Notes: a model not told the origin generated them from the sequence alone. Shown: positions 23,058 through 59,096, counted from the first letter of the stretch. The stretch is 64,000 bases of DNA from Minisyncoccota bacterium (GCA_023142595.1 JAGLJF010000003.1:3873-67872), one strand, 5' to 3'. A program made the numbers and translations.

Positions 23058-23166
23058 TGTCATCCTGAACTTGTTTCAGGATCTTTCGTAATATTAGTAT
23101 CATTCTAATAATCTCACAAAACTAGAAGTTGCATACGACAGATTCTAAACTAAATTCAGAATGACA
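23058..23166. mobile_element. Family-1 MITE, short variant (TIRs TGTCATCCTGAA...TTCAGAATGACA, each a hairpin)
   Basis: Terminal inverted repeats and internal hairpins shared with copies at 24594, 31881, 42692, 44157, 44984, 50067. Confidence 0.7.
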
Positions 23167-23286
23167 ATTGTAAAAGATAAACTTAAAAAAATAGAAGGGA
23201 GATTTTAGATTTTTTTATCTAGGCATACATTTTTGTATGTTCTCCTGTTTGGTGTGTAACCAAACAACCCTGTGAGCAGATTAGGT

Positions 23287-24018
23287 CTACTCTTTCTCTT
23301 CTTTATGTACCCTTGTTACAGGGTGCCAATAATTTTTCTGAGAATGACGATGATAAAGAACATCGTCTTTCACCTTTCTCTCCTCCCCGTCAAACTTAGG
23401 AAGAAGAGCCTCAATTCCTCCGATAGGATCTGAACATTTTTCCTCTTCAAAGAGAGGAGAAAATTCATTTTCAATCTTTTCGTAAGCTTCACCTTTTCCT
23501 GGTGAAACTTCCCATGCCAAAGTGTAATCACTTTGACCTTCTTCGATAAAAACTGATAATGGCTTGAATCGAGCCATCAGTTCAACAGCTTTTATTGCTG
23601 CTTCCGCTGTGTTGGGATTACTATGACCCCAACTACTAGCATGAGTCACCAGCTGAGTAAATACTGTCGTGCTCGGAAGCACTATAGCATTTATTGGTCT
23701 CTTCAACTTTACAAGACCTTTATATTTTTGCCATGACATTCCTTGAATGCCATGAATTTCAGTAGTGAATACACTAGCACTGTATGTCCTTATTGACGGA
23801 CATACATTCACAAACCCAGCAGATTCCTGAGCTTTATATCCTTTCAAAGGAATAATTACAGGCATTTCAGGCTTGAATTTTTCCTCTTTAGTAATCTCAA
23901 TAAGATCACCAACTTCTCCTCCAAATCGGAGAACAAATGCCCCAGACTGTGTCTGGGTAACATCTACAACAGATACTGACAAGTTTCTATTGCCAGTATT
24001 AATATATAATGCATTCAT
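23287..24018 (-). CDS. Hypothetical protein with compositionally atypical (higher-GC) sequence; likely horizontally acquired
   Basis: 243-aa ORF with strong SD (GGAGAGGTGA). Its start overlaps (ATGA) the stop of an upstream 57-aa TM ORF. Embedded between MITEs. Confidence 0.45.
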   Translation of the reverse strand: MNALYINTGNRNLSVSVVDVTQTQSGAFVLRFGGEVGDLIEITKEEKFKPEMPVIIPLKGYKAQESAGFVNVCPSIRTYSASVFTTEIHGIQGMSWQKYKGLVKLKRPINAIVLPSTTVFTQLVTHASSWGHSNPNTAEAAIKAVELMARFKPLSVFIEEGQSDYTLAWEVSPGKGEAYEKIENEFSPLFEEEKCSDPIGGIEALLPKFDGEERKVKDDVLYHRHSQKNYWHPVTRVHKEEKE

Positions 24019-24188
24019 AATATCACCTCTCCCACTTCCTTTTCAGATAATTCCAAGAAGCGAGATTTTATATTTAGACTATAACAGTCAAAGCATTCAC
24101 CAAATCCGTTAGTAAATATTTTGACTATTATAATCAAGATGACAAACACAAAAAATTTTATGTTTTTTCTTCTTTTTTCAAAGAACAT
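24015..24188 (-). CDS. Small TM protein (57 aa; MFFEKRRKNIKFFVFVILIIIVKIF...), translationally coupled to the downstream 243-aa gene
   Basis: Perfect SD GGAGGTG 3 nt before ATG. Stop TGA overlaps the next ATG. Not in the supplied ORF track (<60 aa). Confidence 0.35.
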   Translation of the reverse strand: MFFEKRRKNIKFFVFVILIIIVKIFTNGFGECFDCYSLNIKSRFLELSEKEVGEVIL

Positions 24189-24593
24189 TTTCACCTCCGA
24201 TAATTTATCAGAAGCTTTTTCAAACCTACCTTTTTAATTTTGTCATCCTGAACTTGTTTCAGAATGACAATTGTAAAAGATAAACTTAAAAAAAGAAAAG
24301 AAGAAATATGTTAATTATTCTTTGGAGACATTATGTCATCTCCATTTGGATAATCACCTGCTGTCATTATGTTTCACCTCCGTGCAAATTATTTCTTCTT
24401 TTTTTGAGAATATTATTTTTTAATATCCTCCTTGTTAAATGTTTTTTCAACCCCTCTTTGCAAAACATAGAGGTTGATGTAAATGAGTCTGGGTATTGTT
24501 GGTTTAACGGGTCTATATGATTTTAGCCGTAACCTCAACTCTCTCCTCTTTTACATCAATCTATATGCTTTGTTTATTGCAGTGTGACTCAAG

Positions 24594-24703
24594 TGTCATC
24601 CTGAACTTGTTTCAGGATCTTTTGTTTTATGGGCAATGTTTCTAATAATTTCACAAAACTAGAAATTGCAATCGACAGATTCTGAAATAAATTCAGAATG
24701 ACA
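24594..24703. mobile_element. Family-1 MITE, short variant
   Basis: TGTCATCCTGAACTTGTTTCAGGATC ... GATTCTGAAATAAATTCAGAATGACA. Confidence 0.7.
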
Positions 24704-24991
24704 GCAAACAAACAAAAAACGGATAGGAATATTTCTTTGAAAAAGAGTGTCCTAACCGTTTTTTTATATAGAAAAGGTCAGTTGGTAAATTAAATCTATA
24801 TTTATAGATAAATATATGATTCAATAATTCTCTCCTCAAAAAATTAATAATCGCTATATTCAATTTTTAAATTACTGCACTTTCTTACCATAACAGAGTA
24901 TTTTAACATACTTTGCAAATCTTGTCAAGGGGTTAATATAAATCCATTTTAGAATATTTATAGACTTTAATTTATATGCTATAATGTCTTT

Positions 24992-27028: not shown

Positions 27029-27093
27029 TATAAAAAATAGAGATCAAGGACCCTTATATAGGTCTTCAATCTCTGCCCAGTAAAATGAAGCTT

Positions 27094-27495: not shown

Positions 27496-27699
27496 TTTAT
27501 AGCACCTTAATTTTTTTGTATATTTATAATAAATGAATTTTTTGTTTCGTTTAGTCAAGATATTTCTTGCACATTCCTACATTTACAGGTAATATGTCTC
27601 AAGCAATCCTAGCGAGAGGATGAGAAACTAACTCGGAATACTATCATAGTATAATATATTTGTCAATAACCGCATAATAATATTTAATAAGCTAAAATT

Positions 27700-28536
27700 A
27701 TGCTTTCAAAAGAAGAAATTCAAAAAATATTCAAAACTCCAAACATGGCAATTCTCAAAAGCTTGGGACAGAATTTTTTGATTGACGAAACTGTTTTGAA
27801 AAATATAATTACTTGTTCAGATTTAAATAAAGATGGCGTTGTAATTGAGATTGGTCCAGGACTTGGAACTTTGACTGAAGAGCTTTCAAAAAAATGTAAA
27901 AAAGTTATTGCCATCGAAAAGGACAATGAGTTTGCGCAAATGCTTGAAGGAAAATTTGAAAATGTGGAAGTGATTAATGGTGATATTCTGCAAATGAATA
28001 TTAATGAGCTGGTTCATAAATATTCTCAAAACGGAAAATTCAAACTTGTTTCCAACATCCCCTATTATATTACCTCTCCAATTATAAAATTATTTCTAGA
28101 AAATGCCATCCAACCAGAAGTCATTGTTTTGTTGATGCAAAAAGAAGTGGCTCAAAGAATTTGTGAAAAACCAGGAAAACTGAGTATGATTGCGCTAGGC
28201 GTTCAAGTTTATGGAGAACCTGAAATTGTCGGTTTCGTTAAAAATACTTCTTTCTATCCAGCGCCAAAAGTTGATTCGGCAATTTTGAAAATAAAAAATA
28301 TAAAACGAGAATTTTCTGACGAATATTATCAAAAGTTATTTCGAATTATGAAAATTGGTTTTTCATCCAAAAGAAAAAAATTATTGAACAATCTTTCAGC
28401 AGGTTTGCAAATCGAAAAAAAGGAAGCAGAAAAATTTCTTAATCAGACAGAGATCGATTTGAAAGTCCGCGCGCAAGAATTGAGCATTGAACAATGGGAA
28501 AAATTAATGGAAGTTTACACGACCGTAGAGACGTAG
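27700..28536 (+). CDS. rsmA: 16S rRNA (adenine1518/1519-N6)-dimethyltransferase RsmA/KsgA
   Basis: LGQNFLID motif, SAM-binding VIEIGPGLGTLT, NIPYYI motif. The stop codon lies inside a REP-B hairpin. Confidence 0.85.
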   Translation: MLSKEEIQKIFKTPNMAILKSLGQNFLIDETVLKNIITCSDLNKDGVVIEIGPGLGTLTEELSKKCKKVIAIEKDNEFAQMLEGKFENVEVINGDILQMNINELVHKYSQNGKFKLVSNIPYYITSPIIKLFLENAIQPEVIVLLMQKEVAQRICEKPGKLSMIALGVQVYGEPEIVGFVKNTSFYPAPKVDSAILKIKNIKREFSDEYYQKLFRIMKIGFSSKRKKLLNNLSAGLQIEKKEAEKFLNQTEIDLKVRAQELSIEQWEKLMEVYTTVET

Positions 28537-28553
28537 CAATGCTGCGTCTCTAC
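28525..28553. repeat. REP hairpin family B (GTAGAGACGyAGCAATGCTGCGTCTCTAC), copy 1
   Basis: Near-perfect 29-bp palindrome. Three copies around/in the second RAYT. Confidence 0.75.
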
Positions 28554-28585
28554 AACAATAGATAATATAAATTAAAAATTTTGAT

Positions 28586-29203
28586 ATGTCTCGGCTATAT
28601 AAGAATAAATTCAAAACTGAATCAACGAGATTGAAAAAATGGGACTATTCACAGAATGGTTTTTATTTTGTGACGATTTGCACGAATAATCATCAGTTGT
28701 TTTTTGGTGATGTAAAAAAATCAGAATCAGAACATTGTCCAATTTTTGAAATGAAAAAATCGCCCATTGGCAAAATCGCCGAAAAATATTGGTTAGAAAT
28801 TCCAAAACATTTTTCAAATGTAAAATTAGATGTATTTGTAATTATGCCAAACCATTTACACGGGGTAATTGAAATTTGTGATGATATTGTGATTGATAAA
28901 AATAAACCGTGCAAACATGTAGAGACGCAGCAATGCTGCGTCTCTACAACAACAAATAATGAATCAAAAACATTTTATAGATTAATTCCAAAATCACTGC
29001 CTGTTATTATTCGCTCATTTAAATCAATTTGTACAAAAACAATAAATCAGAAATTTGATGATAGAAATTTTTCCTGGCAATCGAAATACTATGATCATAT
29101 TATTAGAGATGAAAAATCATTAGACGAAATCAGAAAATATATTATTGATAATCCCGCAAAATGGGATTTGGATAAGAATGTTGTTGAGAATTTTTATAAA
29201 TAG
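28586..29203 (+). mobile_element. Second REP-associated tyrosine transposase (RAYT, IS200-like) carrying its own REP hairpin in-frame
   Basis: HuH motif MPNHLHGVIEI. Catalytic tyrosine region WQSKYYDHIIRDEKSLDEIRKYIIDNP. REP-B copies at 28525, 28919 (inside ORF) and 29241. Confidence 0.65.
28919..28947. repeat. REP hairpin family B, copy 2, located in-frame inside the RAYT ORF (encodes HVETQQCCVSTT)
   Basis: Same palindrome. The ORF remains open through it. Confidence 0.7.
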
Positions 29204-29240
29204 CAAAATCCATCAGATTCAATTTGTGAAAATTTATATG

Positions 29241-29269
29241 GTAGAGACGTAGCAATGCTGCGCCTCTAC
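29241..29269. repeat. REP hairpin family B, copy 3
   Basis: GTAGAGACGTAGCAATGCTGCGCCTCTAC. Confidence 0.7.
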
Positions 29270-29288
29270 AAAGAATTTCTACTTGGGG

Positions 29289-29338
29289 TTGACATGTTTT
29301 TAATAGGGCTTGACAAGTTCTGTTTTTTTATGTACAAT
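29289..29338 (+). promoter_or_regulatory. Strong sigma70-like promoter (tandem TTGACA boxes; TTGACA-17-TACAAT) upstream of a ~265-nt leader
   Basis: CTTGACAagttctgtttttttatgTACAAT, with a second TTGACA 21 bp upstream. The first downstream long ORF starts at 29610 with SD AAGGAG. Confidence 0.45.
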
Positions 29339-29609
29339 GTAGAGTTCTAATGATGGGAAGTAGTACCTAAAATCTATTGAAGAACAAAGGGGAAATTGCA
29401 GATTATCGCTTAATTTACAAAACTTTATTTACCACTATTAGAACCTGTCGGTTTTGCAAAAACAAAACAGACAGATTTGTCGATAATTTCGGCAAAGGAT
29501 TGATCATTAATAAATAGCCAAAAAAGATTCGCAATGCGTAAAAGCGTAAAAGGAATTTTTGATGACTTAGAGAATAAAATATACAAAAAAAACTAAGGAG
29601 CGATGAAGA

Positions 29610-31880: not shown

Positions 31881-32055
31881 TGTCATTCTGAACTTGATTC
31901 AGGATCTTCGTTAGGTTAGATTTTGACTTATACTATCTACACGATACTATTGTATAAAAAAATACAACTATGTTTTTTGTAATAATCTGGTTAGCGATTT
32001 ATAGGCTTGCTTTAATATATAAGAATAAAGATTCTGAACTAAATTCAGAATGACA
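31881..32055. mobile_element. Family-1 MITE, full-length (~175 bp)
   Basis: TIRs TGTCATTCTGAA / TTCAGAATGACA. Internal sequence about 80% identical to copies at 44157 and 44984. Confidence 0.75.
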
Positions 32056-38517: not shown

Positions 38518-39272
38518 ACCTGAACTCTTATTATTTGTCATTCTGAATTCATTTCAGAATCTTAGTTAAATTAGATTTGAATCTATACTTTTTTACATAA
38601 TACTTTTATTTATAAAAAACATATATATTCTATAAATATCATACAGGTGCTAGTATATTCATCTGTCATCTCAGAATTTATTCCGAAACGATAGTGCAGG
38701 AATAAATGTCTGAGATCCAGTTTGTTTCGTTTATTAGAATCATTGTATAAACCGTTTTTGCATCATTAATTATTTTCTTTTCTTATAAAACCTTACAAAA
38801 TATATTATTTATTGAGACTTACTGGATTCCAGATAAATTTTTCTTTTGACTCTTAATTGTTAGATTGTCCAGCGTTGTATATACTTTTATAATTACCATT
38901 AGTATCAATTGTCATCCTCAGCTTGACTGAGGATCCAGAATAGACTGAGATAAATTTTAATTTAGGCTTGATACAGCCAAAAGATAATAATCCTAGATTC
39001 CCGCAGGAGTTTATGCTGAATTAATTTCAGTGCGGGAATGACAAATAAGTTTAATGTAATGTATATAACTATTTTTAAAAAGTATAGGAAGCGCTGAAAA
39101 ATCTTACATATTAATAGTAAAATTTTCTGAAATGACAATATTTTGCCACTAAATTAATAAACATTTATACTATAAATGGTTTATTAATTCACTGACGTAA
39201 TTTTATCAACAAATTAAGTACCATTTATAAAAATAGCAACCCAAAGATATTATATAAAAGCAAAAGAGCAAT

Positions 39273-40256: not shown

Positions 40257-40470
40257 TAATTTGAAAATTATAATTTTATTTTCTACATAATTTATTTTGG
40301 TTTATTATTACTGTAGATTAGTATATAATAAAAATAAGTATGTTTAAAATAAAAGAGATTCTTATGACCAATTGTCATTCTGAGAGAACGCGATTGTCAT
40401 TCTGAGTGAAACGAAGAATCTCAAAATAAAGTTTATCAATAAATTTCAATAAACCATAATTTTTAAAAAT

Positions 40471-42243: not shown

Positions 42244-42691
42244 TCCTTAAAAATATTTTTTGTTTATCATCGTTTCTTGATTCACCTCCATCTGTTTGGG
42301 TGAACTTTTTTAACTATCTTTTTTTCATTGTTAGTCTCGAAATAACAAATATATTATATTGCGATTCAACACAAAATTAATCTGCTTACGGGATTCTTCA
42401 TTTCTCTCAAAATGACGCATAAGTATATTGCTAAAATTTTGCAATCTGGGATCCACAGCCCTACGGGACTATGGAACCCTCGAAATAATATTATAAAAGA
42501 TAATTACAAAAATTCACCCAAAAGAATAATCAAATTGCTGGAAAACAAAAGATAAACTTATGGCTATTTTGTTTTTTTAAAAGAACATTTTCAAAATCAA
42601 CATAAGTTGACCCTCTCTCCTTCTCTACTCCAAAACTAGCACAAATATTTGTTTTTGTCAAGGTGGCTGGATGTGGACAGATTTTAGAGAT

Positions 42692-42803
42692 TGTCATTCT
42701 GAACTTGTTTCAGAATCTGTCAGCGGTAAGGATTCATTTTGTTAATTTCGCAAGACAGGAAGTTATAGACAAAAGATTCTAAACTAAATTTAGAATGATG
42801 ACA
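42692..42803. mobile_element. Family-1 MITE, short variant, flanked by ~75-bp direct repeats that each contain a solo half of the FemAB-type palindrome
   Basis: TGTCATTCTGAACTTGTTTCAGAATC...TTTAGAATGATGACA. Flanking repeats at ~42410-42490 and ~42820-42900. Confidence 0.65.
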
Positions 42804-42970
42804 TATTTGTCATACTAAGAAGGAACGACAAAGTATACTGATAAAGTTTTGCAATCCGGGCTCCACAGCCCTACAGGACTATGGAGCCCTCAAACTAAAT
42901 TCAGAATAACAAAAATAAGACAACAAAAAACTGCCTCGCTTTTGCAAGACAGTTTTTCAAAAATTAATTT

Positions 42971-44038: not shown

Positions 44039-44156
44039 TTGTTTATATTGGTAAATAAAGATATCGTCCTAAACAATGTTATATTTCATTTTCGAAAAAA
44101 TTATTTGTCATCCTTGTAGATGTTACCTAATTCGTTGACAGAATATGCTCAAGCTC

Positions 44157-44335
44157 TGTCATCCTGAACTTGTTTCAGGATCTTTGTTAAATTAGGTTTT
44201 GATTTGTATCATATACACAATACTATTGTATATATAGAATAAACACAATATATTTTCTTAATGATACAGTTAGTGATTTATAGACTAGCTTTAATATAGG
44301 AAAACGACAGATTCTGAACTAAATTCAGAATGACA
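44157..44335. mobile_element. Family-1 MITE, full-length (~179 bp)
   Basis: TIRs and internal sequence shared with 31881 and 44984. Confidence 0.75.
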
Positions 44336-44526
44336 AAAATATTGGTTTCATTTTCGAAAAGATTATTTGTCATTCTTGTAGATATTACCTAATTCGTTGA
44401 TAGAATATGTTCAAGCTCTGTCATCCTGAACTTGTTTCAAGATCTATCGTACTTTGCAATAAATGCTTCTATAAATCGTAAAATATTTTAGTCGGATTAT
44501 TTATTTCATCTAATATTTTTCAAGAA

Positions 44527-44811
44527 TTAATCTATATTCAAGTCAGCAAATCCAGGATTTTTACTTTTTATTAAGTTTATTTTCCACGCTCTGTGCCAAT
44601 TTTTAAGTTGTTTTTCTCTTTTAATTGCAGAAACAACATCACTTGTCTGTTCAAAATAAACTAATTTTTTTAAATTATATTTTTCAGAAAAACCTTTTAC
44701 TAGTTTATTTTTATGTTCATAAACTCTTCTTTTTAAATCATTTGTCACACCAATATACAGGGCTGTATCAGTAAAATTCATCATAATATACACATAATAC
44801 GATTTTGACAT
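44527..44811 (-). CDS. GIY-YIG nuclease-domain small protein
   Basis: YYVYIMMNFTDTALYIGVTNDLKRRVYEHK is a GIY-YIG motif. 94 aa. Sits in a nest of MITE copies. Confidence 0.7.
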   Translation of the reverse strand: MSKSYYVYIMMNFTDTALYIGVTNDLKRRVYEHKNKLVKGFSEKYNLKKLVYFEQTSDVVSAIKREKQLKNWHRAWKINLIKSKNPGFADLNID

Positions 44812-44983
44812 TTATTTGTTTTAAAAACATTAAAATCATAACCAACGACAGATTCTGAACTAAATTCAGAATGACAAAAAGTTTGTTTCATTTTCGAAAA
44901 GATTATTTGTCATTCTTAGGTTCTAAACTCAACCACACCTGTCATCCTGAACTAACCCAATGTCATCCTGAGCCAAACCCCTG

Positions 44984-45145
44984 TGTCATCCTGAACTTGT
45001 TTCAGGATCTTTAGTCAAATTAGGTTTTAATCTATATTTATATACACAACACTATCATATACAAAATGAACAAATACGGTTAGTGATTTATGGACTGGCT
45101 TCAATAGAACAGAACGACAGATTCTGAACTAAATTCAGAATGACA
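44984..45145. mobile_element. Family-1 MITE, full-length, preceded by two solo left-end TIR fragments (44940-44983)
   Basis: TGTCATCCTGAACTTGTTTCAGGATC...GATTCTGAACTAAATTCAGAATGACA. Confidence 0.75.
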
Positions 45146-45337
45146 ACTATTGTCGTTTTGTCTTTTGAAAATTTACATTAAATATTATGTAACTCAAGTA
45201 TACATTAATTTTCAATATAAGTGAAATTTTTGTTTATTGATTGACTGTTTCATCTAATATGATATTATTCTAATAGAAAATGAGTAACAATTCAGTAACC
45301 TAACCTTCAGACTTTTTGTTTGGAGTATGGTTTAAAT

Positions 45338-45442
45338 CCACTCGCGTAGAAACGGTCTTCTGATCGGTACTACGCGAGTGGTCTTTACCTGAAAGGGTAT
45401 TGGGCAATCCGAAAGGGTCGCCGCCGACGGAAGACCTTTTTT
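45338..45442 (+). ncRNA. Candidate structured RNA / cis-regulatory leader upstream of the secreted nuclease gene
   Basis: Perfect 12-bp stem (CCACTCGCGTAG...CTACGCGAGTGG). Its loop (GGTCTTC) is complementary to a 3' GAAGACC followed by a T-run, giving pseudoknot/terminator potential. Locally GC-rich in an AT-rich genome. Confidence 0.3.
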
Positions 45443-45477
45443 GTAAAATTTTATTTATTATTAACTAATCTAAAAAT

Positions 45478-46542
45478 ATGAAAATGAAAAAAATATTAAG
45501 TATTGTATTTTTGCTTTCACTGGTTGTAAGTTTTATTTCTATAACACCAAACATAAACGCAATGCAAATTCCAGAAGGAGCGATTATAAAAACTGATAAT
45601 AATCCTGATGTATATATTGTGAAATATAAAAACGGAAAACAATTTAAAAGGTTGGTTTTGAATCCTCAAGTTTTTGAAAGCTATAGTCATTTGAGATGGA
45701 GAGATATTTTGACCGTTAGTCAAATCGAAATGGATTCTTTTATTGTTTCTGATTTAGTGAAAGTAGATGCACAAACTGATATTTATCAGCTTGTGCCAAA
45801 TGGCGATATCGGAACTAAAGTTTTAATAGAATCAACTGTTGGCTATGATTTAGATTCAGCTTATACTATAAATTTAGTAGATTTTGGAAATTATGTAACG
45901 GGAGAAGTTAGGGGAATAATTGATACTGATAGTTATCCAAACGAGACCCAAAATAATATCTATACCGTGAATAGAGTTGTTGATGGTGATACTATAGAAG
46001 TTAATGTTAATAGTGTATTAGAAAAAGTCAGGTTGTTGGGTATAAATACACGAGAAACAGTTGATCCAAGAAAATCAGTTGAATGTTTTGGTATAGAGGC
46101 GTCCAATAAAGCAAAGATGGTTTTAATGGGTCAAAATATTGAACTTGTGGCGGATAACACTCAGGGCGATCGTGACAAATATAACCGTCTTCTCCGATAT
46201 GTTTTTCTGGAAGATGGAACTAATTTTAATAAAATGATGATTAGTGAAGGATATGCTTATGAATATACATACAATACATCATATAAATATCAAGTCGAAT
46301 TTAAACAGGCAGAAAAAGTAGCTATGGAAGCAAAAAGAGGTCTTTGGGCAACTAGTGTATGTGATTCACAATCCGCTCCTGTATCTGATCAATATAATTG
46401 CTCTAGTAATGTTTATAACTGTACGGATTTTTCTACTCACGCTGAAGCTCAATCTGCTTTTGAATCCTGCGGTGGGACAGCTAATGATATCCATAGACTT
46501 GATGGCGATAATAATGGTATTGCGTGTGAATCATTACAATAA
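45478..46542 (+). CDS. Secreted thermonuclease (SNase-like) with N-terminal unknown domain and C-terminal Excalibur Ca-binding domain
   Basis: Signal peptide. SNase motifs (VVDGDTIEV...RLLGINTRE...YNRLLRYV...RGLW). Excalibur tail CTDFSTHAEAQSAFESCGGTANDIHRLDGDNNGIACE. Confidence 0.7.
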   Translation: MKMKKILSIVFLLSLVVSFISITPNINAMQIPEGAIIKTDNNPDVYIVKYKNGKQFKRLVLNPQVFESYSHLRWRDILTVSQIEMDSFIVSDLVKVDAQTDIYQLVPNGDIGTKVLIESTVGYDLDSAYTINLVDFGNYVTGEVRGIIDTDSYPNETQNNIYTVNRVVDGDTIEVNVNSVLEKVRLLGINTRETVDPRKSVECFGIEASNKAKMVLMGQNIELVADNTQGDRDKYNRLLRYVFLEDGTNFNKMMISEGYAYEYTYNTSYKYQVEFKQAEKVAMEAKRGLWATSVCDSQSAPVSDQYNCSSNVYNCTDFSTHAEAQSAFESCGGTANDIHRLDGDNNGIACESLQ

Positions 46543-46570
46543 TATTAAATTAATTTTTTAACATAAATAT

Positions 46571-47092
46571 ATGAGCAAAGGAAAAACAATTCTTAAAATA
46601 ATTTGTGGATTAGTGATTTTAACGCTGGTATTCTTTTTTGGATTGATAGCATTAACGCTAATTGATCCAAATCTTGATGACAACTCAGCATTAAATCAAG
46701 AAAAAATTTATGAAGAATCCGAAAACCAAATAATTAATTCTGTAATAAATTTTGATAAATTAAGAGAGTGGAACCCAGATGATGATATTCATGCTATCGG
46801 TTTAGAAATTTTAGTATCCAAAGATGATGTAACAGAAGAAAATATTGTTAAATTAGCAGAATCCATTGCTTCCAATACACAAAAAGCTGTGGTTAAAATT
46901 TATCAAAATAGACAAGCTTGGGAAGAAGAACAATCTAGAAATTATACAGATGTTTATAATCAAGATTATTTGGCTTTTTATGTTAAAAATCTTACAAATA
47001 GTAACGCATATAGAGGTTTCAATGAAATCAGATGGATGCAAGAAAAAGGAGATTTGCAAGATTTGTTTGGTACTAAAACTAAGCTGAAATAA
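46571..47092 (+). CDS. Hypothetical N-terminally membrane-anchored protein (possible nuclease-associated/immunity-like cassette gene)
   Basis: 173-aa ORF. Preceded by the same ~40-bp junction sequence that also precedes the gene at 47281. Confidence 0.35.
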   Translation: MSKGKTILKIICGLVILTLVFFFGLIALTLIDPNLDDNSALNQEKIYEESENQIINSVINFDKLREWNPDDDIHAIGLEILVSKDDVTEENIVKLAESIASNTQKAVVKIYQNRQAWEEEQSRNYTDVYNQDYLAFYVKNLTNSNAYRGFNEIRWMQEKGDLQDLFGTKTKLK

Positions 47093-47258
47093 AAAAGTAC
47101 CAAAATTTTCTGATGTTTCCCAAGCAAACTCTGATTTTGGAAATCAAGCAGATGCTCAAAGAATTTTTAATGTTTGTGGTGGAATCAATAATGATATTCA
47201 TAAACTTGATAGCAATAATAATGATGTTCCGTGTGAATCGTCATCGTGGTCATATTAA
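47088..47258 (+). pseudogene. Orphan Excalibur-domain C-terminal remnant (no start codon), duplicate of the thermonuclease tail plus downstream junction
   Basis: Translates to SDFGNQADAQRIFNVCGGINNDIHKLDSNNNDVPCESSSWSY, aligning with the nuclease C-terminus. Followed by TATTAAATTAATTTTTTAACATAAACATATG, identical to the junction after 46542. Confidence 0.55.
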
Positions 47259-47280
47259 ATTAATTTTTTAACATAAACAT

Positions 47281-48099
47281 ATGCGAAAAGAACAAGAACA
47301 AGCTAAATATAAAAAGTGGTATAAAAAATGGTGGGGAATTTTAATCATACTTATATTTTTACCCTTTGTAGCTATTTGGTATATTTGGAAAAAAACAAAC
47401 TGGGATAAATCTGTTAAGATTATATTAACGATTTTAATTTTCTTTTTTGTGATAATTTTATTAAAATCAAATGATGAAACAATTAAACAAATAGAACAAT
47501 TAGAATCTCAAAAAATTACACAAATACAGAAACAGGAAAATGACGAAAAAAATATAGAAATTTTAAAGTCCATTAATTATGAATTAGTAGAGTCTAAAGA
47601 TATTTCTTTTAATGATCCTAATAGCGGAATTGTAAAAAGATTTAATACGCGGGTTTTAATTGAAAATAATCCAGTAACTAAAAAACAAATAGAGATTTTA
47701 AGTGAAAAAATAATAAAAGACTATCAGCAACAAAAAGCAGATGCTATCTCAATTTTTTATTATTTTAATAGAAGCCAAGTCAATGGAGCATACACGCTTG
47801 CTCAAGCTGAATGGGCTCCAAATGGAAAATGGGAAGAAGCTAATTTAAAACAAAATCAAAAAACAACTTATAAGTTTACAGAATTTATTGATAAAAAAAG
47901 AACAGACGGACCAACTGAATTAGAAAGAGAAATAAATACCGCCATGAGAGATTTATGGTATGAAATGATGGAAACACAAGATATGGTCACAGATGAAGAA
48001 ACTGCAAAAATCTTAGCTCCCAAATATGGAAAAACAGTTGAAGAAATGCTTGAAATTAGACGCAAAGTAATCGATTATGATTTAGGTTTAACACAATAA
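47281..48099 (+). CDS. Hypothetical N-terminally membrane-anchored protein (second cassette gene)
   Basis: 272-aa ORF after the Excalibur remnant. A further tiny remnant (PDVSQA, CTGATGTTTCCCAAGCA) follows at ~48187. Confidence 0.35.
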   Translation: MRKEQEQAKYKKWYKKWWGILIILIFLPFVAIWYIWKKTNWDKSVKIILTILIFFFVIILLKSNDETIKQIEQLESQKITQIQKQENDEKNIEILKSINYELVESKDISFNDPNSGIVKRFNTRVLIENNPVTKKQIEILSEKIIKDYQQQKADAISIFYYFNRSQVNGAYTLAQAEWAPNGKWEEANLKQNQKTTYKFTEFIDKKRTDGPTELEREINTAMRDLWYEMMETQDMVTDEETAKILAPKYGKTVEEMLEIRRKVIDYDLGLTQ

Positions 48100-48401
48100 A
48101 CAAATCTTAAAAATTTCTACGCAACCATAACCTGCCATAACCAAAGCAGGTTTTAAATTGGGAAATTCTCGCGGGAACTGATTTGTAATCAGTTCCTGAT
48201 GTTTCCCAAGCATTAAAAACATAAAACGATAAAATAAAAATTATTGAGACTTCAAAATAAAAGAAACTGTTTACAAAACAGTTCCTGCGATAAAACAATT
48301 TTTTCTGAAATCGCAAAAGACTCCATACGGAGTATGGAGCCAACGGGGAAATAATACAAAATCGTCATCAACACACCACTGACCCCTCTCAAGAGGGGAA
48401 T

Positions 48402-48507
48402 TGTCATCTCGAAATAAGAGGAACGATTGAGAGATCTGAGAACTAAATAAATTTCACTATATAATATCATTCACAGATTTCTCACCCTATCGGGATTCGA
48501 AATGACA
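48402..48507. mobile_element. Family-2 MITE (TIRs TGTCATCTCGAAAT...ATTTCGAATC-like/GAAATGACA)
   Basis: Shares termini and internal blocks with the copy at 52691-52795. A partial copy lies at ~12700-12750. Confidence 0.65.
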
Positions 48508-48514
48508 AATATAT

Positions 48515-49858: not shown

Positions 49859-50066
49859 GGAGAATGATTTTAATATCTAAATATCTTAATAAATAGGTCT
49901 GCTGATTTACTTCTGGTTCCCCCTGATAAGGGGGTTGGGGGGTTTGAAAAATGGCTAAGAAAAACTGAATTATTTTTTTAAGATTGTGAAATTTTATCTC
50001 TTTTTATAAAAATTAGATGAAAATCAGCAGCCACTAGATATAACAAAATTAATATATTATCAGATA

Positions 50067-50248
50067 TGTCATCCTGAATAATGTCATGCTGAATTTATTT
50101 CAGTATTATTTCAGGATCTTCTGTTTTTTTAAATCTAAATTTTACTACAAAACACAATTCTTTTGTATATGACAAACCAATATTAGATGATTTATAGTTT
50201 ATGTTTATTGTAATATTCAACAGATTCTGAAATAAATTCAGAATGACA
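50067..50248. mobile_element. Family-1 MITE, full-length (~182 bp)
   Basis: TGTCATCCTGAATAATGTCATGCTGAA... ...GATTCTGAAATAAATTCAGAATGACA. Confidence 0.7.
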
Positions 50249-52690: not shown

Positions 52691-52795
52691 TGTCATCTCG
52701 AAATGAGTAGAACGATTGAGAAATCTAAAAATAGCAACAAATGAACTAAATTATATTTATAGATATCTCGTCGTTATTACTCCCACGAAATGACA
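52691..52795. mobile_element. Family-2 MITE
   Basis: TGTCATCTCGAAATGAGTAGAACGATTGAGAAATCT...CCCACGAAATGACA. Confidence 0.65.
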
Positions 52796-52871
52796 AATTA
52801 TTTTTTGTGATTCAAAATATATAATGTCGCTTACTAAAATACTTAATCGCACTATACAAAAAAACAATTTC

Positions 52872-53618: not shown

Positions 53619-53645
53619 TTTGTTTTTTTAATATTAATAAATTAT

Positions 53646-54884
53646 TTATGCTTCAGAAATTATGTCGAATACCCCAGCCTTTGCACTTCCTGTAATTGTG
53701 AGAGCATATACCCTTTGCGCTATATTTTGGGAAACAATCTTTTTTGCTGTCTCATTAAGTGTCGATCCTGAACCAGTTACATCATCTATAAGTAGAATAT
53801 TTTTATATTGTTTCTTACTAGATACAACAATTGTCTTTTTAGCATTTAATATTCTATCTTCTACTTTTTTTAAACTTTTTTGTTGAATAGGAACGAGAGT
53901 TTTTTCTTTTGAAAAAGCAATTTTATCGCAAGAAGTTCTTAATTGTTGAGCAATAAATGTCATAAGCTGTGTTTTTCTCGCAACCGTTGGAGGAATAAAT
54001 GCCACACAATCGATTTTATATTGTTGAACAATTTTATCAATACTTTTTTGTATTTTATCAACAATCACTTTCATCAATACTTTATTTGTATGACCTGACT
54101 TTGCAGTCCTAACTATCTGGCTCAAGGCAGTTTTACCAAAAACTGGCAAAGCATCAAAGTCTTGATGAAATAATTTTTCTATATATACATTATCGCCAAA
54201 AATATGGTGCAACTTCTCCGTAGCATCAATCATCAGCACTCCAATCTGATTGTTGTAATATTTTTTTCGTATGCTTATATATTCTTCTGCGAGTTTTTTA
54301 ATGTCCGATCTGCCAGATCGATTTTTTGCCCAATATTCAAAGCCCTTAATACCTTTCAACAAGCGTCCTTCTGGCGTTGTATAGACATAATATTTTTCAA
54401 TAGCCTCTTTTTGCTCAGGCGAAAAAATATTTTTATCTTTTTGAAAATTATATGAATAGATAATCTTTTTCGGTGGCGAGCCAAACTTACCGAGAGTGCC
54501 ATCATCTACAAACCTTTTTACATATTTTTTTGCTGAACCTACACTAACATTCCAAACGCATGCAAAATCGTCTATAGTCATTTGTTCGACATATTCAAAG
54601 AGAAATTCAAGTGCTTTATTATTCACGACGAGTTTGTATTTTACATTCGCACCTTTATTGACAGTTTTTCTCAAAATTTCATCTTCAACAAGCTTCCGAA
54701 GTATTTTTCCAATACCTTCACGAGAGAGTGTACTACCTTTCTTAATATCAGAAACAGCAAATACACCAGTGTCTACTAGATTATTAATAATTATTTTATG
54801 TTGTTTGTTTTTATCTTCCATATCACTCATTGTACTATAGAAAGAATGCTTTGTCAATGTTAATTTAATAGCTAATTTAAGCAA
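53646..54884 (-). CDS. Winged-HTH + phosphoribosyltransferase-domain protein (ComF/GntX-like PRTase C-terminus)
   Basis: C-terminal ILLIDDVTGSGSTLNETAKKI PRPP-binding motif. N-terminal wHTH-like segments (ILRKLVEDEILRK). The real start is probably an internal Met (MSDMEDKNK). Confidence 0.45.
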   Translation of the reverse strand: MLKLAIKLTLTKHSFYSTMSDMEDKNKQHKIIINNLVDTGVFAVSDIKKGSTLSREGIGKILRKLVEDEILRKTVNKGANVKYKLVVNNKALEFLFEYVEQMTIDDFACVWNVSVGSAKKYVKRFVDDGTLGKFGSPPKKIIYSYNFQKDKNIFSPEQKEAIEKYYVYTTPEGRLLKGIKGFEYWAKNRSGRSDIKKLAEEYISIRKKYYNNQIGVLMIDATEKLHHIFGDNVYIEKLFHQDFDALPVFGKTALSQIVRTAKSGHTNKVLMKVIVDKIQKSIDKIVQQYKIDCVAFIPPTVARKTQLMTFIAQQLRTSCDKIAFSKEKTLVPIQQKSLKKVEDRILNAKKTIVVSSKKQYKNILLIDDVTGSGSTLNETAKKIVSQNIAQRVYALTITGSAKAGVFDIISEA

Positions 54885-55043
54885 TATTATATAGTACGCA
54901 TTATACTATAGAAATAATAAGTTAAAAATACTTGTTTTTTGGCTAATTTAAGTAATAATCCATAGTACTTATTATACTGTGGATAAATGATATAAAGAAA
55001 GAAAATGATTAACAAATAGTTATAATCCTCTTTTAAGAATTTA

Positions 55044-55361
55044 TTATTCCAAATTTACTAAAACAAGCCCAATTGTGATTGCTCCGATGCCGATAAATTG
55101 AATAGGTGTTATATTTTCTTTGAAAACAAAATAACCAATTATTGTCATGGCAATAATTGAAAGTGAAATCCAGAGGATGTTTGTAATTGCCATTCCTTCA
55201 TATGCTAGTGATTTGGCAAAAAGAAAACCAGCTCCGCCAAAAAATAAAAAAGTAGCAAAAAGAAATAGTGAATTTTTATTAACACTATAAAGCTTAGCAC
55301 ATAATGTGCCAGATATATCTAATACTATAATTGCTGTGATGTATAGCGCAAATATGCTCAT
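55044..55361 (-). CDS. SMR-family small multidrug resistance efflux protein (EmrE/QacE-like)
   Basis: 105 aa, 4 TM. Conserved Glu in TM1 region (...LCAKLYS...). Family-typical size. Confidence 0.7.
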   Translation of the reverse strand: MSIFALYITAIIVLDISGTLCAKLYSVNKNSLFLFATFLFFGGAGFLFAKSLAYEGMAITNILWISLSIIAMTIIGYFVFKENITPIQFIGIGAITIGLVLVNLE

Positions 55362-55566
55362 ACTAATTTGTTTATATTGTCTAAATGTCTATTTTATTAT
55401 ATTGTATATATAATACGGCTGATTGGCAAATGAGTTTGTGGCGATTGATAAAAAATATAAGAATTTAAATATAACCAAGTAAATGCAACACTCACGAATG
55501 TCACCTTCAATCTCGTAATAACATTTCATTCTTAATAAGCTGTGGACAAGTGAATATAAAAACTTT

Positions 55567-56517: not shown

Positions 56518-56618
56518 TTCTAGTTTATACAGTAGTATGAAGTAGTCTAAATAATAGATTTGTCTTTTTTATTGCAGAGAGCCTAAGACCTAATTTAATT
56601 TAAAAAGTAATTAAAAAT

Positions 56619-57188
56619 ATGACAGTAACACTACAAGAATTTAATCATAGTCGTACCCGCGCGGACATGCCGAACATTAAACCTGGACATGTTGTGAAAG
56701 TTTATCAAAAAATTGTTGAAACAAAGGGGGTCGGAAAAAAAGCTGAAACAAAAGAAAGAGTTCAGATTTTTGAAGGTCTTGTTTTGGGCAGAAAGGGAGG
56801 AGATGGAATTAACGCAACTATTACTGTTCGAAAAATTTCTGGTGGAATTGGAGTTGAAAGAATTTTCCCAATAAATGCTCCAACTATTGAAAAAATTGAG
56901 CTAGTTAAGATTACAAAAGCAAGAAGAGCAAAATTGAATTTTATGAGGGATAGAATTGGAAAAGCAACAAAGCCAAAAGGAGAACTTATTGATCCAAAAG
57001 AAAATATAGTTGGCATAAAAGAAGAAATTTCCGAAGAAGATAAAAATGCAGAAACAAAGACCGATGATACAGAAATTAAAGGAAAAGAAGAAATGAAAGA
57101 ATCATCAAAGGAAAAAGAAGAAGATGTTGCAGTTGAAAAAGAAGAAAAGGTTGCGAAAGATAAAAAAGAGGTTACAGAAGAAAAATAG
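56619..57188 (+). CDS. rplS: 50S ribosomal protein L19 with ~70-aa K/E-rich C-terminal extension
   Basis: Aligns with L19 (PNIKPGHVVKVYQKIVE...RVQIFEGLVLGRKG...ITVRKIS). Acidic/basic tail. Confidence 0.85.
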   Translation: MTVTLQEFNHSRTRADMPNIKPGHVVKVYQKIVETKGVGKKAETKERVQIFEGLVLGRKGGDGINATITVRKISGGIGVERIFPINAPTIEKIELVKITKARRAKLNFMRDRIGKATKPKGELIDPKENIVGIKEEISEEDKNAETKTDDTEIKGKEEMKESSKEKEEDVAVEKEEKVAKDKKEVTEEK

Positions 57189-57213
57189 ATATACAGTTTG
57201 TTAATTTTATTCA

Positions 57214-57296
57214 GCCGAGGTGGCGGAATTGGTATACGCAGCAGGTTGAGGGCCTGTGTCCAATCGGGCGTGAGGGTTCAAGTCCCTCTCTCGGCA
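57214..57296 (+). tRNA. tRNA-Leu (anticodon GAG)
   Basis: Hand-folded cloverleaf. Anticodon loop TTGAGGG. Long variable arm. Confidence 0.8.
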
Positions 57297-57323
57297 CAGA
57301 CTAAAATTAATATAATTGATTAA

Positions 57324-57397
57324 GGGCGATTAGCTCAGTTGGCTAGAGCACCTCGTTTACACCGAGGGGGTCGGGGGTTCGAATCCCTCATCGCCCA
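57324..57397 (+). tRNA. tRNA-Val (anticodon TAC)
   Basis: GGGCGATTAGCTCAGTTGG... Anticodon loop TTTACAC. T-loop GGTTCGAATCC. Confidence 0.8.
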
Positions 57398-57479
57398 CCC
57401 CTTGTCATTCTGAATTTTATTCAGAATATTCTTAATAAAACTTATATTTGTTGTTTATATATAATTTTAGCCGAGGTAG

Positions 57480-57552
57480 CTCAGTTGGTAGAGCAAAGGA
57501 CTGAAAATCCTTGTGTCGGCAGTTCAAGTCTGCCTCTCGGCACAAATAAAAA
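57480..57552 (+). tRNA. tRNA-Phe (anticodon GAA)
   Basis: GCCGAGGTAGCTCAGTTGG... Anticodon loop CTGAAAA. Confidence 0.8.
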
Positions 57553-57556
57553 AATA

Positions 57557-57588
57557 CTAGCTAGACTAGTATTTTTTGTTTGGAGCGG
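57557..57588. terminator. Bidirectional terminator hairpin between convergent tRNA-Phe and tRNA-Gly
   Basis: AAAAATACTAG-ctaga-CTAGTATTTTT: stem flanked by A-run and T-run. Confidence 0.4.
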
Positions 57589-57590
57589 AT

Positions 57591-57666
57591 GACCGGAGTC
57601 GAACCGGCGACCTTCTCCTTGGCAAGGAGACGTTCTAGCCACTGAACTACATCCGCAATCTACCTA
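57591..57666 (-). tRNA. tRNA-Gly (anticodon GCC), CCA encoded
   Basis: rc GCGGATGTAGTTCAGTGG... Anticodon loop TTGCCAA. Ends ...CCGCTCCA. Confidence 0.8.
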
Positions 57667-57764
57667 CACAGAATACCATAAATTTATAATTTTGCAATAC
57701 TTACACTGTAAATTTTAGATTACTTTAAATAACATTTCACAATTTAAAAAAATAAACCTTAACT

Positions 57765-58829
57765 TTATAAATATTTAGCTTCAATACCACAAGCTCCTTC
57801 AGAAGAAACCATGCAGGCACCAATTGGATTCTCAGAAGTGCATTTTTTGTTAAACAGCTTGCAATCTTTTGGCTGCTTGAGCCCACGAAGAATGGCCCCA
57901 CAAATACATCCAGTGCTCTCAAGAGATTCTTCGACAAGTTCAGAATGACAAGATAAAATATTTTTATATTTTACCTTCGCATCATACTTTGAATATTTTT
58001 CTCTAATTTTTAAACCTGAATTAGGAATATTTCCAAGTCCTCGCCAAAATGCATCTCCATTTTCAAAAACTTCATCAACTAATTTTCTGGCGACAGGATT
58101 TCCTTCTGGACGAACACATCTGGTATATTCATTTTCAACTTCTTCTCTTCTCTCTGCAATCTGTTTCAAAAGCATATAAATTCCAAGCAAAACATCTTCT
58201 CCGCTAAAACCAGTAATAACCTGAGAAAGTTTGAATTTTTGATATAGTTCTGTTCCAATGATAGCTGAAACATGTCCAGGATTCAAGAAGCCGTCAATTT
58301 TCAAAGTTGGAGTATCAACCAATACTTGCATCGCTGGAATAAAAAGTTTGTGAGATGAATAAACAGTCAAGCCTTTTTTAATTGCATCTGCCGTCATTGG
58401 AGTTGTTGTTTCAAATCCCAGTCCAAAAAAAACTAAATCCTTTTTTTCTTTTTGTAATTTTAAAGCATCTTCAGTTGAATAAACTTCATTAACATCAGCA
58501 CCAAGTTCGCGCGCTTTATTGAGAGATAATTTTTGTTTTTGTTTATCAGCTTTTAAAACTAAATTTCCTGGCACTCTGAGAACATCTCCATAACAAGCAA
58601 TTGGAACATCATTTAAAGCTAATTTAATTATTGCATCAACATCTTTTTGGTCTGTCACACAAACTGGACACCCAGGTCCCGAAAGAAGCTTCACATTTTT
58701 CGGCAAAATCTTCTTGATACCGTTTTTTGCAACAGCTTCAGTATGCGTCCCACAAAGCTCCATAATCACAACATCGCGATTAATTTCTTTTGCAAGAATT
58801 TCAATTTTTTTTATTATATTTAATGTCAT
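57765..58829 (-). CDS. hypD: Hydrogenase maturation factor HypD
   Basis: Diagnostic motifs CGTHTE (CGxH), GPGCPVCV, C-terminal CxxC...CxxC. Contains a 28-bp MITE right-end fragment in-frame (57923..57950). Confidence 0.8.
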   Translation of the reverse strand: MTLNIIKKIEILAKEINRDVVIMELCGTHTEAVAKNGIKKILPKNVKLLSGPGCPVCVTDQKDVDAIIKLALNDVPIACYGDVLRVPGNLVLKADKQKQKLSLNKARELGADVNEVYSTEDALKLQKEKKDLVFFGLGFETTTPMTADAIKKGLTVYSSHKLFIPAMQVLVDTPTLKIDGFLNPGHVSAIIGTELYQKFKLSQVITGFSGEDVLLGIYMLLKQIAERREEVENEYTRCVRPEGNPVARKLVDEVFENGDAFWRGLGNIPNSGLKIREKYSKYDAKVKYKNILSCHSELVEESLESTGCICGAILRGLKQPKDCKLFNKKCTSENPIGACMVSSEGACGIEAKYL

Positions 58830-58876
58830 TTTTTAATAACCTAATTCGATTTAAACCGCTAACAAACACAAATGAT

Positions 58877-59096
58877 TGTCATCCTGAGTGAAACGAAGGA
58901 TCCCGTTATTAGTTTCATGAGGTGTTTTATAACGACTTGATGTACATAATCTCGGGATTCTTTACTACTATTCAGAATAACTGGATACACTATCATTCTG
59001 GGCTTGTCGAAGGATTCCACTGTTAGTTTTGTATAATATTTTATGACGATTTGATGTGCATAGTCGCGAGATTCTTCACTACCGTTCAGAATGACA
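58877..59096. mobile_element. Two tandem family-3 MITEs (~105 bp each; GTCATyCTGAGyG...GAAGGATyCC ... GGGATTCTT...TTCAGAATGACA) between hypD and hypC
   Basis: Copy 1 58877-58982, copy 2 58992-59096. Same family as the in-frame copy in hypF-Cterm and the partial copies at ~40370-40430. Confidence 0.7.

Follow-up and report, generated by a model that had tools for sequence, protein, structure and literature searches.

A GIY-YIG nuclease gene bounded by the ends of short repeats

The stretch of DNA analysed here (the window, 64,000 nucleotides; GCA_023142595.1, JAGLJF010000003.1:3873-67872) belongs to a metagenome-assembled genome (MAG) of the Patescibacteria (Pacebacteria), has a G+C content of 25-35%, and is populated by short non-coding units that share TGTCAT termini. 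Among these units lies a 458-bp cassette in which a gene for a 94-residue GIY-YIG nuclease, here called ssn, is enclosed by the same ends, which we interpret as Ssn-related motif (SRM) hairpins. A sequence-only reading had described the units as MITEs (transposable elements of the miniature inverted-repeat kind) whose mobilizing enzyme was absent from the window. It overlooked the gene-carrying copy, the only place in the window where a gene sits between the repeat ends. The cassette and its immediate surroundings comprise the following features.

44084-44156, plus strand: 'U' unit of 73 bp preceding elements, found again at 44346-44418 and in part at 44886-44920
44157-44335, plus strand: family 1a paired unit, 179 bp
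44419-44876, minus strand: SRM-ssn-SRM cassette, 458 bp, a candidate autonomous unit with ends as in the non-coding units
44419-44444 and 44851-44876: the outward-facing hairpins of the cassette
44527-44811, minus strand: ssn, encoding a 94-residue single-domain GIY-YIG nuclease (Pfam)
44940-44983, plus strand: two half-hairpin stutters of 21 and 23 nt, 5' of the unit at 44984, not present in L008 (a contig of the same locus)
44984-45145, plus strand: family 1a paired unit, 162 bp

The 'U' unit itself includes a degenerate TGTCATyCT...AGAATATG module.

Pfam assigns residues 5-79 of the 94-residue product to the GIY-YIG domain (E=7.8e-16), with no DNA-binding extension, and the sequence is identical to that of a record named 'GIY-YIG nuclease family protein [Candidatus Pacebacteria bacterium]'. 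Residues Y8, Y19, and E66 are invariant in an 18-sequence alignment (alignment A1). A tblastn search of the window revealed no second copy or pseudogene of ssn. No relative of the nuclease is present in the PDB; NCBIfam, which offers no model for the family, returned sub-threshold matches only; PADLOC gave no match for ssn; and the cassette DNA is without a match among public plasmids.

This arrangement resembles the system described for Neisseria meningitidis SsnA, a 94-residue single-domain GIY-YIG protein (CDD cd10448) whose catalytic residues, which were mutated, are Y6, Y17, and E64 (Chenal et al., Nat Commun 2025, PMC11893778). The spacings between the invariant residues of the window protein (11 and 47 residues) equal those of SsnA, a match by spacing only. 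The target of SsnA is the NTS repeat CGTCATTCCCGCGMAVGCGGGAATCYRG, of the form CGTCATTCCCGCG..GCGGGAATC, a subset of dRS3 that is bound only as single-stranded DNA (ssDNA), with the cut a few nucleotides 5' of its hairpin; cutting requires the GTC before the palindrome, and binding requires the C that follows it (PMC11893778). At least one SRM flanks 71% of the homologues, and 42% have SRMs on both sides; the authors likened NTS-ssnA-NTS to an insertion sequence, to IS200/IS605, and to repetitive extragenic palindromes (REPs) with their associated tyrosine transposases (RAYTs) (PMC11893778). The window shares with this system a 94-residue single-domain GIY-YIG protein, inverted flanking hairpins, a 5' GTCAT, a C after the palindrome, and many extra copies, one of which (13602-13625) fits the Neisseria dRS3 consensus ATTCCC-N8-GGGAAT; one or two window copies at most have dRS3 sequence. 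It differs in its host, a Patescibacteria MAG from a group that is not mentioned in the published study (PMC11893778), in its A/T-rich stems (yCTGAA..TTCAGr), in the presence of three stem types beside one gene in 64 kb and of copies in frame within genes, and in that the window protein is known from sequence alone.

We consider it likely that the TGTCAT-ended units are SRM hairpins, that these are the cognate sites of the Ssn-family nuclease encoded in the window, and that the 'MITEs' are gene-less inverted pairs of such hairpins. The TGTCAT that had been taken for the terminal repeat of a transposase would then be the single-stranded GTC tail of the motif followed by the first stem bases, AT. 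The gene-less units consist of inverted SRMs around a family-specific spacer of 0-130 bp and are counterparts of the Neisseria intergenic mosaic elements (NIMEs) and of REPINs. Ssn may also be the enzyme that moves them. An orphan 'MITE' label is thereby replaced by a named pair of enzyme and site, which alters what should be sought in this genome.

GIY-YIG is also the classic fold of homing endonucleases, and the window protein weakly matches TIGR01453, a model of group I intron endonucleases. One could accordingly picture a free-standing homing-endonuclease gene that spreads by double-strand-break repair, with the hairpins as relics of its target sites. The TIGR01453 score is 19.6 against a cut-off of 56 bits, however, the 94-residue protein has no DNA-binding domain, its characterized relatives do not cut double-stranded DNA, and hundreds of gene-less doublets would not be expected from such a gene. 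We give this explanation almost no credence.

Hairpin ends and spacer families

A scan of the 64-kb window for TGTCATYCTGAA with at most one mismatch yielded 32 matches, compared with 1.11 expected and a maximum of 4 in 100 shuffles. A structural SRM scan, which requires GTCWY, a stem starting at the W, and a closing C, found 20 matches with at least 7 pairs and a loop of at most 12 (0.47 expected) and 29 with at least 6 pairs (4.4 expected). GTCAT-type ends occur at ~26 loci, covering ~2.9 kb or ~4.6% of the window, either solo or as inverted pairs 29-182 bp in length. The published search pattern HGTCWYN(0-2)YYVSBRHN(0-5)WNVSBRGN(0-2)RNCYNB has 0 matches in the window (0.02 in shuffles), because it requires G/C-rich positions in the stem whereas the window stems are A/T-rich. 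Being blind to A/T-rich SRMs, the pattern has probably led to an under-count of Ssn/SRM systems in low-GC lineages such as Patescibacteria.

Units of family 1 open with TGTCATyCTGAAyTTrkTTCAGrATC and close with GATTCTGAAmTAAATTCAGAATGACA. An 8-bp DNA hairpin (-5.5 to -6.1 kcal/mol, z ~-3.6) forms at either end, and the whole unit is able to fold back on itself. Two spacers are distinguished, 1a in units of 162-182 bp that are 71-80% identical and 1b in units of 109-110 bp that are 77-86% identical; there are also one 136-bp unit and one 29-bp minimal palindrome. Alignment of the family 1 copies shows near-invariant ends and diverged interiors. Families 2 and 3 have the same TGTCAT...ATGACA termini as family 1, and the four spacer families 1a, 1b, 2, and 3 give the repeats a NIME-like architecture. 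The remaining intergenic units and solo hairpins are listed below.

12690-12723, plus strand: solo type-2 hairpin
13602-13625, minus strand: solo hairpin GTC-ATTCCCTTGAAGAAGGGAAT-C, the dRS3-like copy
23058-23166, plus strand: family 1b paired unit, 109 bp, with a long foldback (z = -3.9)
24241-24269, plus strand: 29-bp minimal palindrome TGTCATCCTGAACTTGTTTCAGAATGACA
24594-24703, plus strand: family 1b paired unit, 110 bp
31881-32055, plus strand: family 1a paired unit, 175 bp, intergenic
38536-38664, plus strand: 3'-truncated family 1a copy, directly after a VirB4/TraG-like gene
38665-39042: cluster of three SRM hairpins, at 38665-38717 (plus), 38911-38935 (plus), and 38996-39042 (minus)
40373-40420, plus strand: 22-nt stutter (40373-40394) and solo type-3 hairpin
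42692-42911, plus strand: two abutting units
48402-48507, plus strand: type-2 paired unit, 106 bp, with a related copy in L099
50067-50248, plus strand: family 1a paired unit, 182 bp, with one hairpin nested in the loop of its left hairpin
52691-52795, plus strand: type-2 paired unit, 105 bp
57403-57428, plus strand: solo type-1 hairpin, 3 nt after tRNA-Val
58877-59096, plus strand: type-3 tandem doublet (58877-58981 and 58992-59096) in the hypC-hypD spacer

Hairpins are nested in the loops of other hairpins at 50067-50118 and at 38996-39042, the latter reading ATTCCCGC...GCGGGAAT with the insert within the loop. The flanks of the 24241-24269 palindrome are paralogous to those of the copy at 23058 (88-91% identity). 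Within the abutting pair, 42692-42800 is a family 1b unit with a decayed right end and 42808-42911 has degenerate ends and carries a GGCTCCACAGCCC...GGAGCC hairpin. An Rfam scan returned only tRNAs and a LOOT RNA, with no family matching the repeat elements. A terminator role for the GTCAT hairpins was considered and rejected, a single hairpin passing a simple terminator scan.

These checks agree with the sequence-only reading in its description of repeated, inverted-repeat-bounded non-coding units in several families with common TGTCAT termini, which nest and which abut genes and tRNAs. Every coordinate it gave holds matching sequence: the full family 1 copies at 31881-32055, 44157-44335, 44984-45145, and 50067-50248, the three short copies beginning at 23058, 24594, and 42692, the end-to-end fused minimal copy, the solo end after tRNA-Val (with a 3-nt gap), the two family 2 units, and the family 3 copies at 58877-59096, in the HypF C-terminal open reading frame (ORF), and near 40370. 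The family 2 fragment that it had noted near 12700 is the solo end at 12690-12723. Other points require amendment. The supposed solo end at 38536 is a truncated full-length copy. The description of each end as itself a hairpin applies to family 1, with its significant 8-bp stem, and not to families 2 and 3, whose stems have 5 bp and are not significant. Further copies fall outside the stated range of 23058-59096, at 1283-1418, 10207-10333, 12690, and 13602.

Homologous ssn loci in other genomes

The homologues listed for the window protein number more than 8000, and many lie on very short contigs. One of them comes from an unrelated member of the Patescibacteria in groundwater (75% identity to the window protein by local alignment, 71% in alignment A1). 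Its gene stands between TGTCATCCTGAACTTGTTTCAGGATC and GATCCCGAAATAAATTCGGGATGACA, where GTCAT is kept and one stem is different (CCCGAA/TTCGGG). We also applied the structural SRM scan to 80 homologous loci from GTDB species representatives (53-71% protein identity), drawn from Patescibacteria, Gastranaerophilales, Treponema, Bacteroidota, Cloacimonadota, Proteobacteria, Firmicutes, Chloroflexota, and others. An outward-facing SRM is present on both sides of the gene in 38 of the 80 loci (48%) and on at least one side in 51 (64%), shares that agree with the published 42% and 71%. Within 200 bp of the gene there are 4.47 SRMs per kb, compared with 0.11 per kb at more than 400 bp from it.

Of the 32 typed loci, 26 have one stem type on both sides. 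Each of the three window families has a matching stem type beside ssn in other genomes: type 1 (yCTGAA) at 20 upstream and 17 downstream flanks, type 3 (yCTGAG) at 11 and 10, and type 2 (yTCGA) at 7 and 6. Seven homologues, with a mean identity of 60% to the window protein, have flanking hairpins of the NTS type (GTCATyCCyGC). Flanks of the NTS type can be seen at loci L031, L064, and L070. Protein similarity was also compared with stem type (identity 0.626 versus 0.598; 0 of 2000 permutations), a difference that is small and confounded by relatedness. A metagenome census found at least 137 exact type-1 hairpins on at least 120 contigs. Among the matches listed, an opposing SRM within 300 bp closes 62 of these 137 hairpins, mostly as doublets of 53-92 bp, whereas the solo ones, which have neither a closing SRM nor an ssn homologue in the vicinity, number 64. 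A tblastn search placed an ssn homologue within 900 bp of 7 of the listed hairpins, and classification by closing end assigned 5 to ssn, 3 of them as closed ssn-carrying units.

One candidate case of ssn mobility was discarded. The GIY-YIG gene in the related contig L101 belongs to another subfamily and has no GTCAT hairpins. It encodes 86 residues and lies, within 2900-3800 of that contig, between two copies of a tRNA-like 3' segment (...CCTAGTGTCC...ATTAGACGATGAGGCCA); it may reflect the insertion of an endonuclease into a tRNA gene or next to one.

The survey bears on two explanations that invoke a transposase. Classical MITEs have target-site duplications (TSDs) and derive from DDE-transposase insertion sequences, and the window units could be such deletion derivatives of a TGTCAT-ended insertion sequence, moved in trans by a DDE transposase encoded elsewhere in the genome. 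Their inverted ends, small size, several families, and scattered distribution favour this explanation. The sequence-only reading had itself named a lack of consistent TSD or inverted-repeat structure as refuting it, and examination of the insertion sites gave no TSD for any of the copies. Among the 15 units listed, none had one with TGTCAT/ATGACA ends and none with CAT/ATG ends, the chance level being a TSD of at least 2 bp in 12% of random pairs. The sole TSD-like match, of 3 bp with GTCAT/ATGAC ends, came from a family 2 unit with a misplaced right end. Moreover, Pfam annotation of the window ORFs revealed no DDE transposase or recombinase in the 64 kb, the only gene with these ends is the GIY-YIG nuclease, as it is across the 80 genomes, and each end is a palindrome by itself, with solo ends occurring as well. 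A MITE origin is thus very improbable.

The second explanation regards the repeats as REP/REPIN-type elements moved by a Y1 (IS200-like, RAYT) transposase. The window contains two such genes, at 2478-3014 and 28586-29203, with matches to Y1_Tnp; PADLOC gave no match for either. The Y1 island at 2216-3145 is a real insertion relative to sister genome L099, and TSD-less hairpin repeats are typical of RAYT systems. Each Y1 gene, however, has its own hairpins (GTTAAACGAAGAGATAACGAAGTTTAAC for one and GTAGAGACGyAGCAATGCTGCGyCTCTAC for the other), neither gene has GTCAT hairpins at its flanks, and the GTCAT hairpins in other genomes track GIY-YIG genes instead. The GTCAT hairpins are without the 5' GTAG and the window Y1 genes are served by other hairpins, which places the units outside the REP/REPIN-RAYT group; we judge a Y1 origin to be highly unlikely.

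Site occupancy and stutters in sister genomes

Sister genomes with ~90-98% nucleotide identity to the window differ in which sites carry a unit. The 50067 unit is absent from L104 and L105, and the hypC-hypD spacer of a sister genome contains one different 85-bp unit where the window has a doublet. The HypF unit is present in a sister genome with one 21-nt stutter fewer, the solo hairpin after tRNA-Val is conserved in L104, and the 52691 unit lies inside a gap-free block of 95.7% identity with L104.

Another difference involves the cassette region. Segment 44039-48508 (4.47 kb), which comprises the SRM cluster, ssn, the LOOT RNA, a gene for an SNase-Excalibur protein, two ORFs, and a type-2 unit at its far end, is replaced by 184 bp in L104 and by ~110 bp in L105. 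Contig L008, from the same locus at 97.6% identity, also carries the cassette; in it, positions 44039-44418, including the 44157 unit, are replaced by 38 nt. The left junction of the cassette reads ...AAATTATT|TGTCATCCTGAAC in L008 and ...AAATTATT|TTAAAATC in the cassette-less L104, and the cassette therefore begins at (T)GTCAT, with no duplication.

Several hairpins are preceded, on their GTCAT side, by a stutter, a half copy consisting of GTCAT, the 5' arm, and ~10 nt. Over 510 hairpins from all loci, stutters number 28 upstream and 5 downstream, and their spacing clusters at 20-23 nt. They occur in the window at 44940-44983, 10207-10248, and 40373-40394 and also at loci L026, L031, L066, L081, and L083, and their number differs between sister genomes.

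Two neighbouring features of the variable segment were recorded. The LOOT RNA (45297-45422, plus strand; Rfam RF03000, 67 bits, gathering score 46) has the last SRM unit on one side and the SNase gene on the other, and the SNase-Excalibur protein is a PADLOC candidate, 'SNc+LTD' (E=1e-44). Elsewhere, 53620-55390 (1.77 kb, with ORFs 53646-54884 and 55044-55361) is replaced by 46 bp in L104.

Copies in frame within genes

Three copies lie in frame within protein-coding genes.

1283-1418, minus strand: paired unit within a FemAB-family gene (CHSEF...VQNDS)
10207-10333, plus strand: two 21-nt stutters and an 85-bp type-3 paired unit (10249-10333) in the gene for a HypF Kae1-like domain protein
57925-57950, minus strand: SRM-like hairpin in hypD (CHSELVEESLE)

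Compared with structure 4g9i, HypF has an additional segment, residues 106-161, at the point where the structure passes from residue 499 to residue 502, and the insert reads CHSNPNNCNSEINICHPELVEGF...LRSAQNDS. The FemAB-family protein (436 residues) carries CHSEFISES...ILNQVQNDS, which is absent from an 88%-identical orthologue (P0122 of L099, 357 residues) and present in P0123; other FemAB proteins of the candidate phyla radiation (CPR) have different SRM-type peptides at the equivalent spot. The orthologue alignment was used because, relative to solved structures, the FemAB insert falls in a variable coiled-coil arm. The hypD hairpin, at most a possible insertion, adds only ~5 residues relative to HypD structure 2z1d. 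The HypF and FemAB inserts are read in one common frame (CH[S/P]E...QND), and both are insertions in conserved protein genes like those of the Rickettsia palindromic elements (RPEs).

The HypF-like ORF (9892-11163) encodes the C-terminal Kae1-like domains only, and the ORF upstream (8730-9665) has as its counterpart in the sister locus a Trypsin_2 protein, not the HypF N-terminus. Another SRM end, now decayed (LHQVQNSS), follows the HypF insert at a distance of ~60 bp; the sister genome has it in a better-preserved form (YAQDD). A separate hairpin family, GGxTCCACAGCCCTxCGGGACTATGGAxCC, occurs at 1786-1853, 42421-42488, and 42831-42898. The copy at 1786-1853 forms part of the FemAB reading frame (ISRWFHSPEGLWNPNARLLQTGF), and the closest orthologue lacks it; peptides like ISRWFHSPEGLWNPNARLLQTGF are found in other CPR FemAB proteins too. 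No partner gene was seen for this family.

A proposed mechanism for the spread of SRM units

By analogy with N. meningitidis SsnA, each hairpin would fold when its DNA becomes single-stranded during replication, repair, or transformation. Ssn would bind the folded hairpin and nick the same strand just beyond the border of the unit, a few nucleotides 5' of GTCAT, leaving the complementary strand uncut. In an inverted pair, this geometry would place one nick in each strand at opposite borders. Separation of the nicked strands would then leave flanks with a recessed 3'-OH facing a 5' overhang that spans the whole unit, and fill-in and rejoining would produce a tandem duplicate. Such a step fits the hypC-hypD doublet, at a site with a single unit in the sister genome, and the modules of U plus element at 44084-44920. 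Dispersal to new sites, nesting in loops, and the stutters on the cut side would be probable by-products of nick-primed repair. The nicks would in this way drive spread and turnover without TSDs, and within genes only stop-free, in-frame insertions would survive. A host role in limiting the recombination of incoming ssDNA, as in Neisseria, would be compatible with this scheme.

We tentatively go one step further, to a proposal that we regard as possible and short of probable: the SRM doublets and the cassette would be true transposable elements that are moved by a GIY-YIG ssDNA nickase, TSD-less and hairpin-guided, distinct from HUH/Y1 systems, and uniting NIMEs, RPEs, and the CPR elements, with the stutters as the footprint of the process. 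If so, transposition by a GIY-YIG nickase would form one pan-bacterial class across Neisseria, Rickettsia, and CPR.

A number of observations weigh against our interpretation of the units as sites of Ssn. The window has three stem types and one ssn gene, and in Neisseria an altered stem sequence abolishes activity (PMC11893778). Given the failure of the published pattern, the assignment of the hairpins to the SRMs rests on structure and association, and the protein is provisionally placed in the Ssn family by length, domain, residue spacing, and flanks, not by direct alignment with SsnA or cd10448. The ends of families 2 and 3 fall short of significance by nearest-neighbour energies. The copies are old, with internal identities of 71-86% and no recent burst. 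Most comparisons of filled and empty sites (FemAB, the 50067 unit, and the 44039-48508 segment) have diverged flanks, leaving the L008/L104 junction as the only clean one. Finally, one nick per strand alone neither excises nor copies a unit.

An alternative that shares the same enzyme action is that the repeats are not, or are no longer, mobile, and are kept by the host as marks at which Ssn cuts ssDNA, whether incoming or exposed, to tune recombination and transformation in the vicinity of particular genes, having spread by recombination and duplication only. It overlaps with the interpretation favoured here as to what the enzyme does and differs as to whether the units transpose. In N. meningitidis, NTS and SsnA have been shown experimentally to tune recombination and transformation (PMC11893778), and host-kept marks would fit the near-invariant ends beside drifting interiors, the age of the copies, and the conservation of the tRNA-Val hairpin, the 52691 unit, and the HypF unit in a sister genome. 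On the other hand, the in-frame insertions in HypF and FemAB are hard to reconcile with such marks, the nesting, stutters, and differing site occupancy among sisters look selfish, and the presence of the cassette across distant phyla at 53-71% protein identity indicates horizontal movement. We consider this alternative unlikely, with a far better claim than any of the three explanations set aside above.

How the repeats spread was left open by Chenal et al. The window offers several clues: the lack of TSDs, the junction at (T)GTCAT, the dominance of inverted doublets, a site occupied differently in sister genomes, and stutters on the side at which SsnA cuts. Beyond the published account (PMC11893778), the present analysis adds a CPR host, A/T-rich stems that escape the pattern, in-frame insertions, occupancy differences between sisters, and directional stutters.

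Relation to other repeat systems

NIMEs consist of dRS3-RS-dRS3 with RS spacers of 19-214 bp that fall into families, and were reported to be specific to Neisseria (Bentley et al. 2007, PMC1797815). The window units likewise place short inverted hairpins around spacer families and vary among related genomes in the number of doublets, as NIMEs do in their arrays; they differ in being mostly single pairs instead of long arrays, in their stems, and in being sometimes intragenic. The intragenic share of NTS is 2% (PMC11893778).

The likeness to REP/REPIN/BIME-RAYT and IS200/IS605 systems lies in the dependence on hairpins and ssDNA, the absence of TSDs, and the small nuclease gene, domesticated or selfish, with its own hairpins, and REPINs also have the inverted doublet as their common unit. 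RAYTs, however, have the Y1/HUH fold and a GTAG tail, compared with GIY-YIG and GTC(AT) here, and IS200/IS605 elements are cut at both ends of one strand, whereas the orientation of Ssn sites allows one cut per strand. Classical MITEs such as the Correia elements resemble the window units in being small, non-coding, multicopy, and sometimes intragenic, with inverted ends; the window units differ in their lack of TSDs and in having a GIY-YIG nuclease as coding partner.

Like the units in HypF and FemAB, RPEs are palindromic units of ~100-150 bp that are found in frame in unrelated housekeeping genes, to which they add a peptide (PMC10969869). The organism and the sequences differ, and the inclusion of Rickettsia among the SRM-rich genera (PMC11893778) is no more than a hint that RPEs are linked to Ssn. 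The copies in frame in HypF and FemAB show that such hairpin units alter the proteins of reduced genomes, as RPEs alter those of Rickettsia. RPE peptides may themselves encode hairpins of the GTCAT type.

Other repeats and genes in the window

The first Y1 gene lies in a 930-bp insertion (2216-3145) between the FemAB and TsaD genes that is absent from L099. Its ORF (2478-3014, minus strand) encodes a 178-residue IS200-like transposase and is flanked by three 106-nt direct repeats (2220-2325, 2374-2479, and 3039-3144), each with the hairpin GTTAAACGAAGAGATAACGAAGTTTAAC. The second belongs to a REP/RAYT-like system at 28525-29298, in which ORF 28586-29203 has a weak C-terminal Y1_Tnp match and the hairpins with the REP-type 5' GTAG begin at 28525, 28919 (inside the ORF), and 29241. 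The product of the UvrD gene in the window had no record in an exact-protein look-up. Two G/C-rich hairpins fall outside the GTCAT family, CCTCGCAGCAAGCTGCCGAGG at ~9690-9720 and TTCCCCCTGATAAGGGGG at ~49930-49960, the latter in intergenic DNA that is absent from the sister genomes. Tandem duplication of genes is seen twice, as a pair of paralogous ORFs without assigned function at 17947-19030 (repeats 70-72% identical) and as paralogous ATP-grasp genes at 59337-61411 (repeats 74-78% identical).

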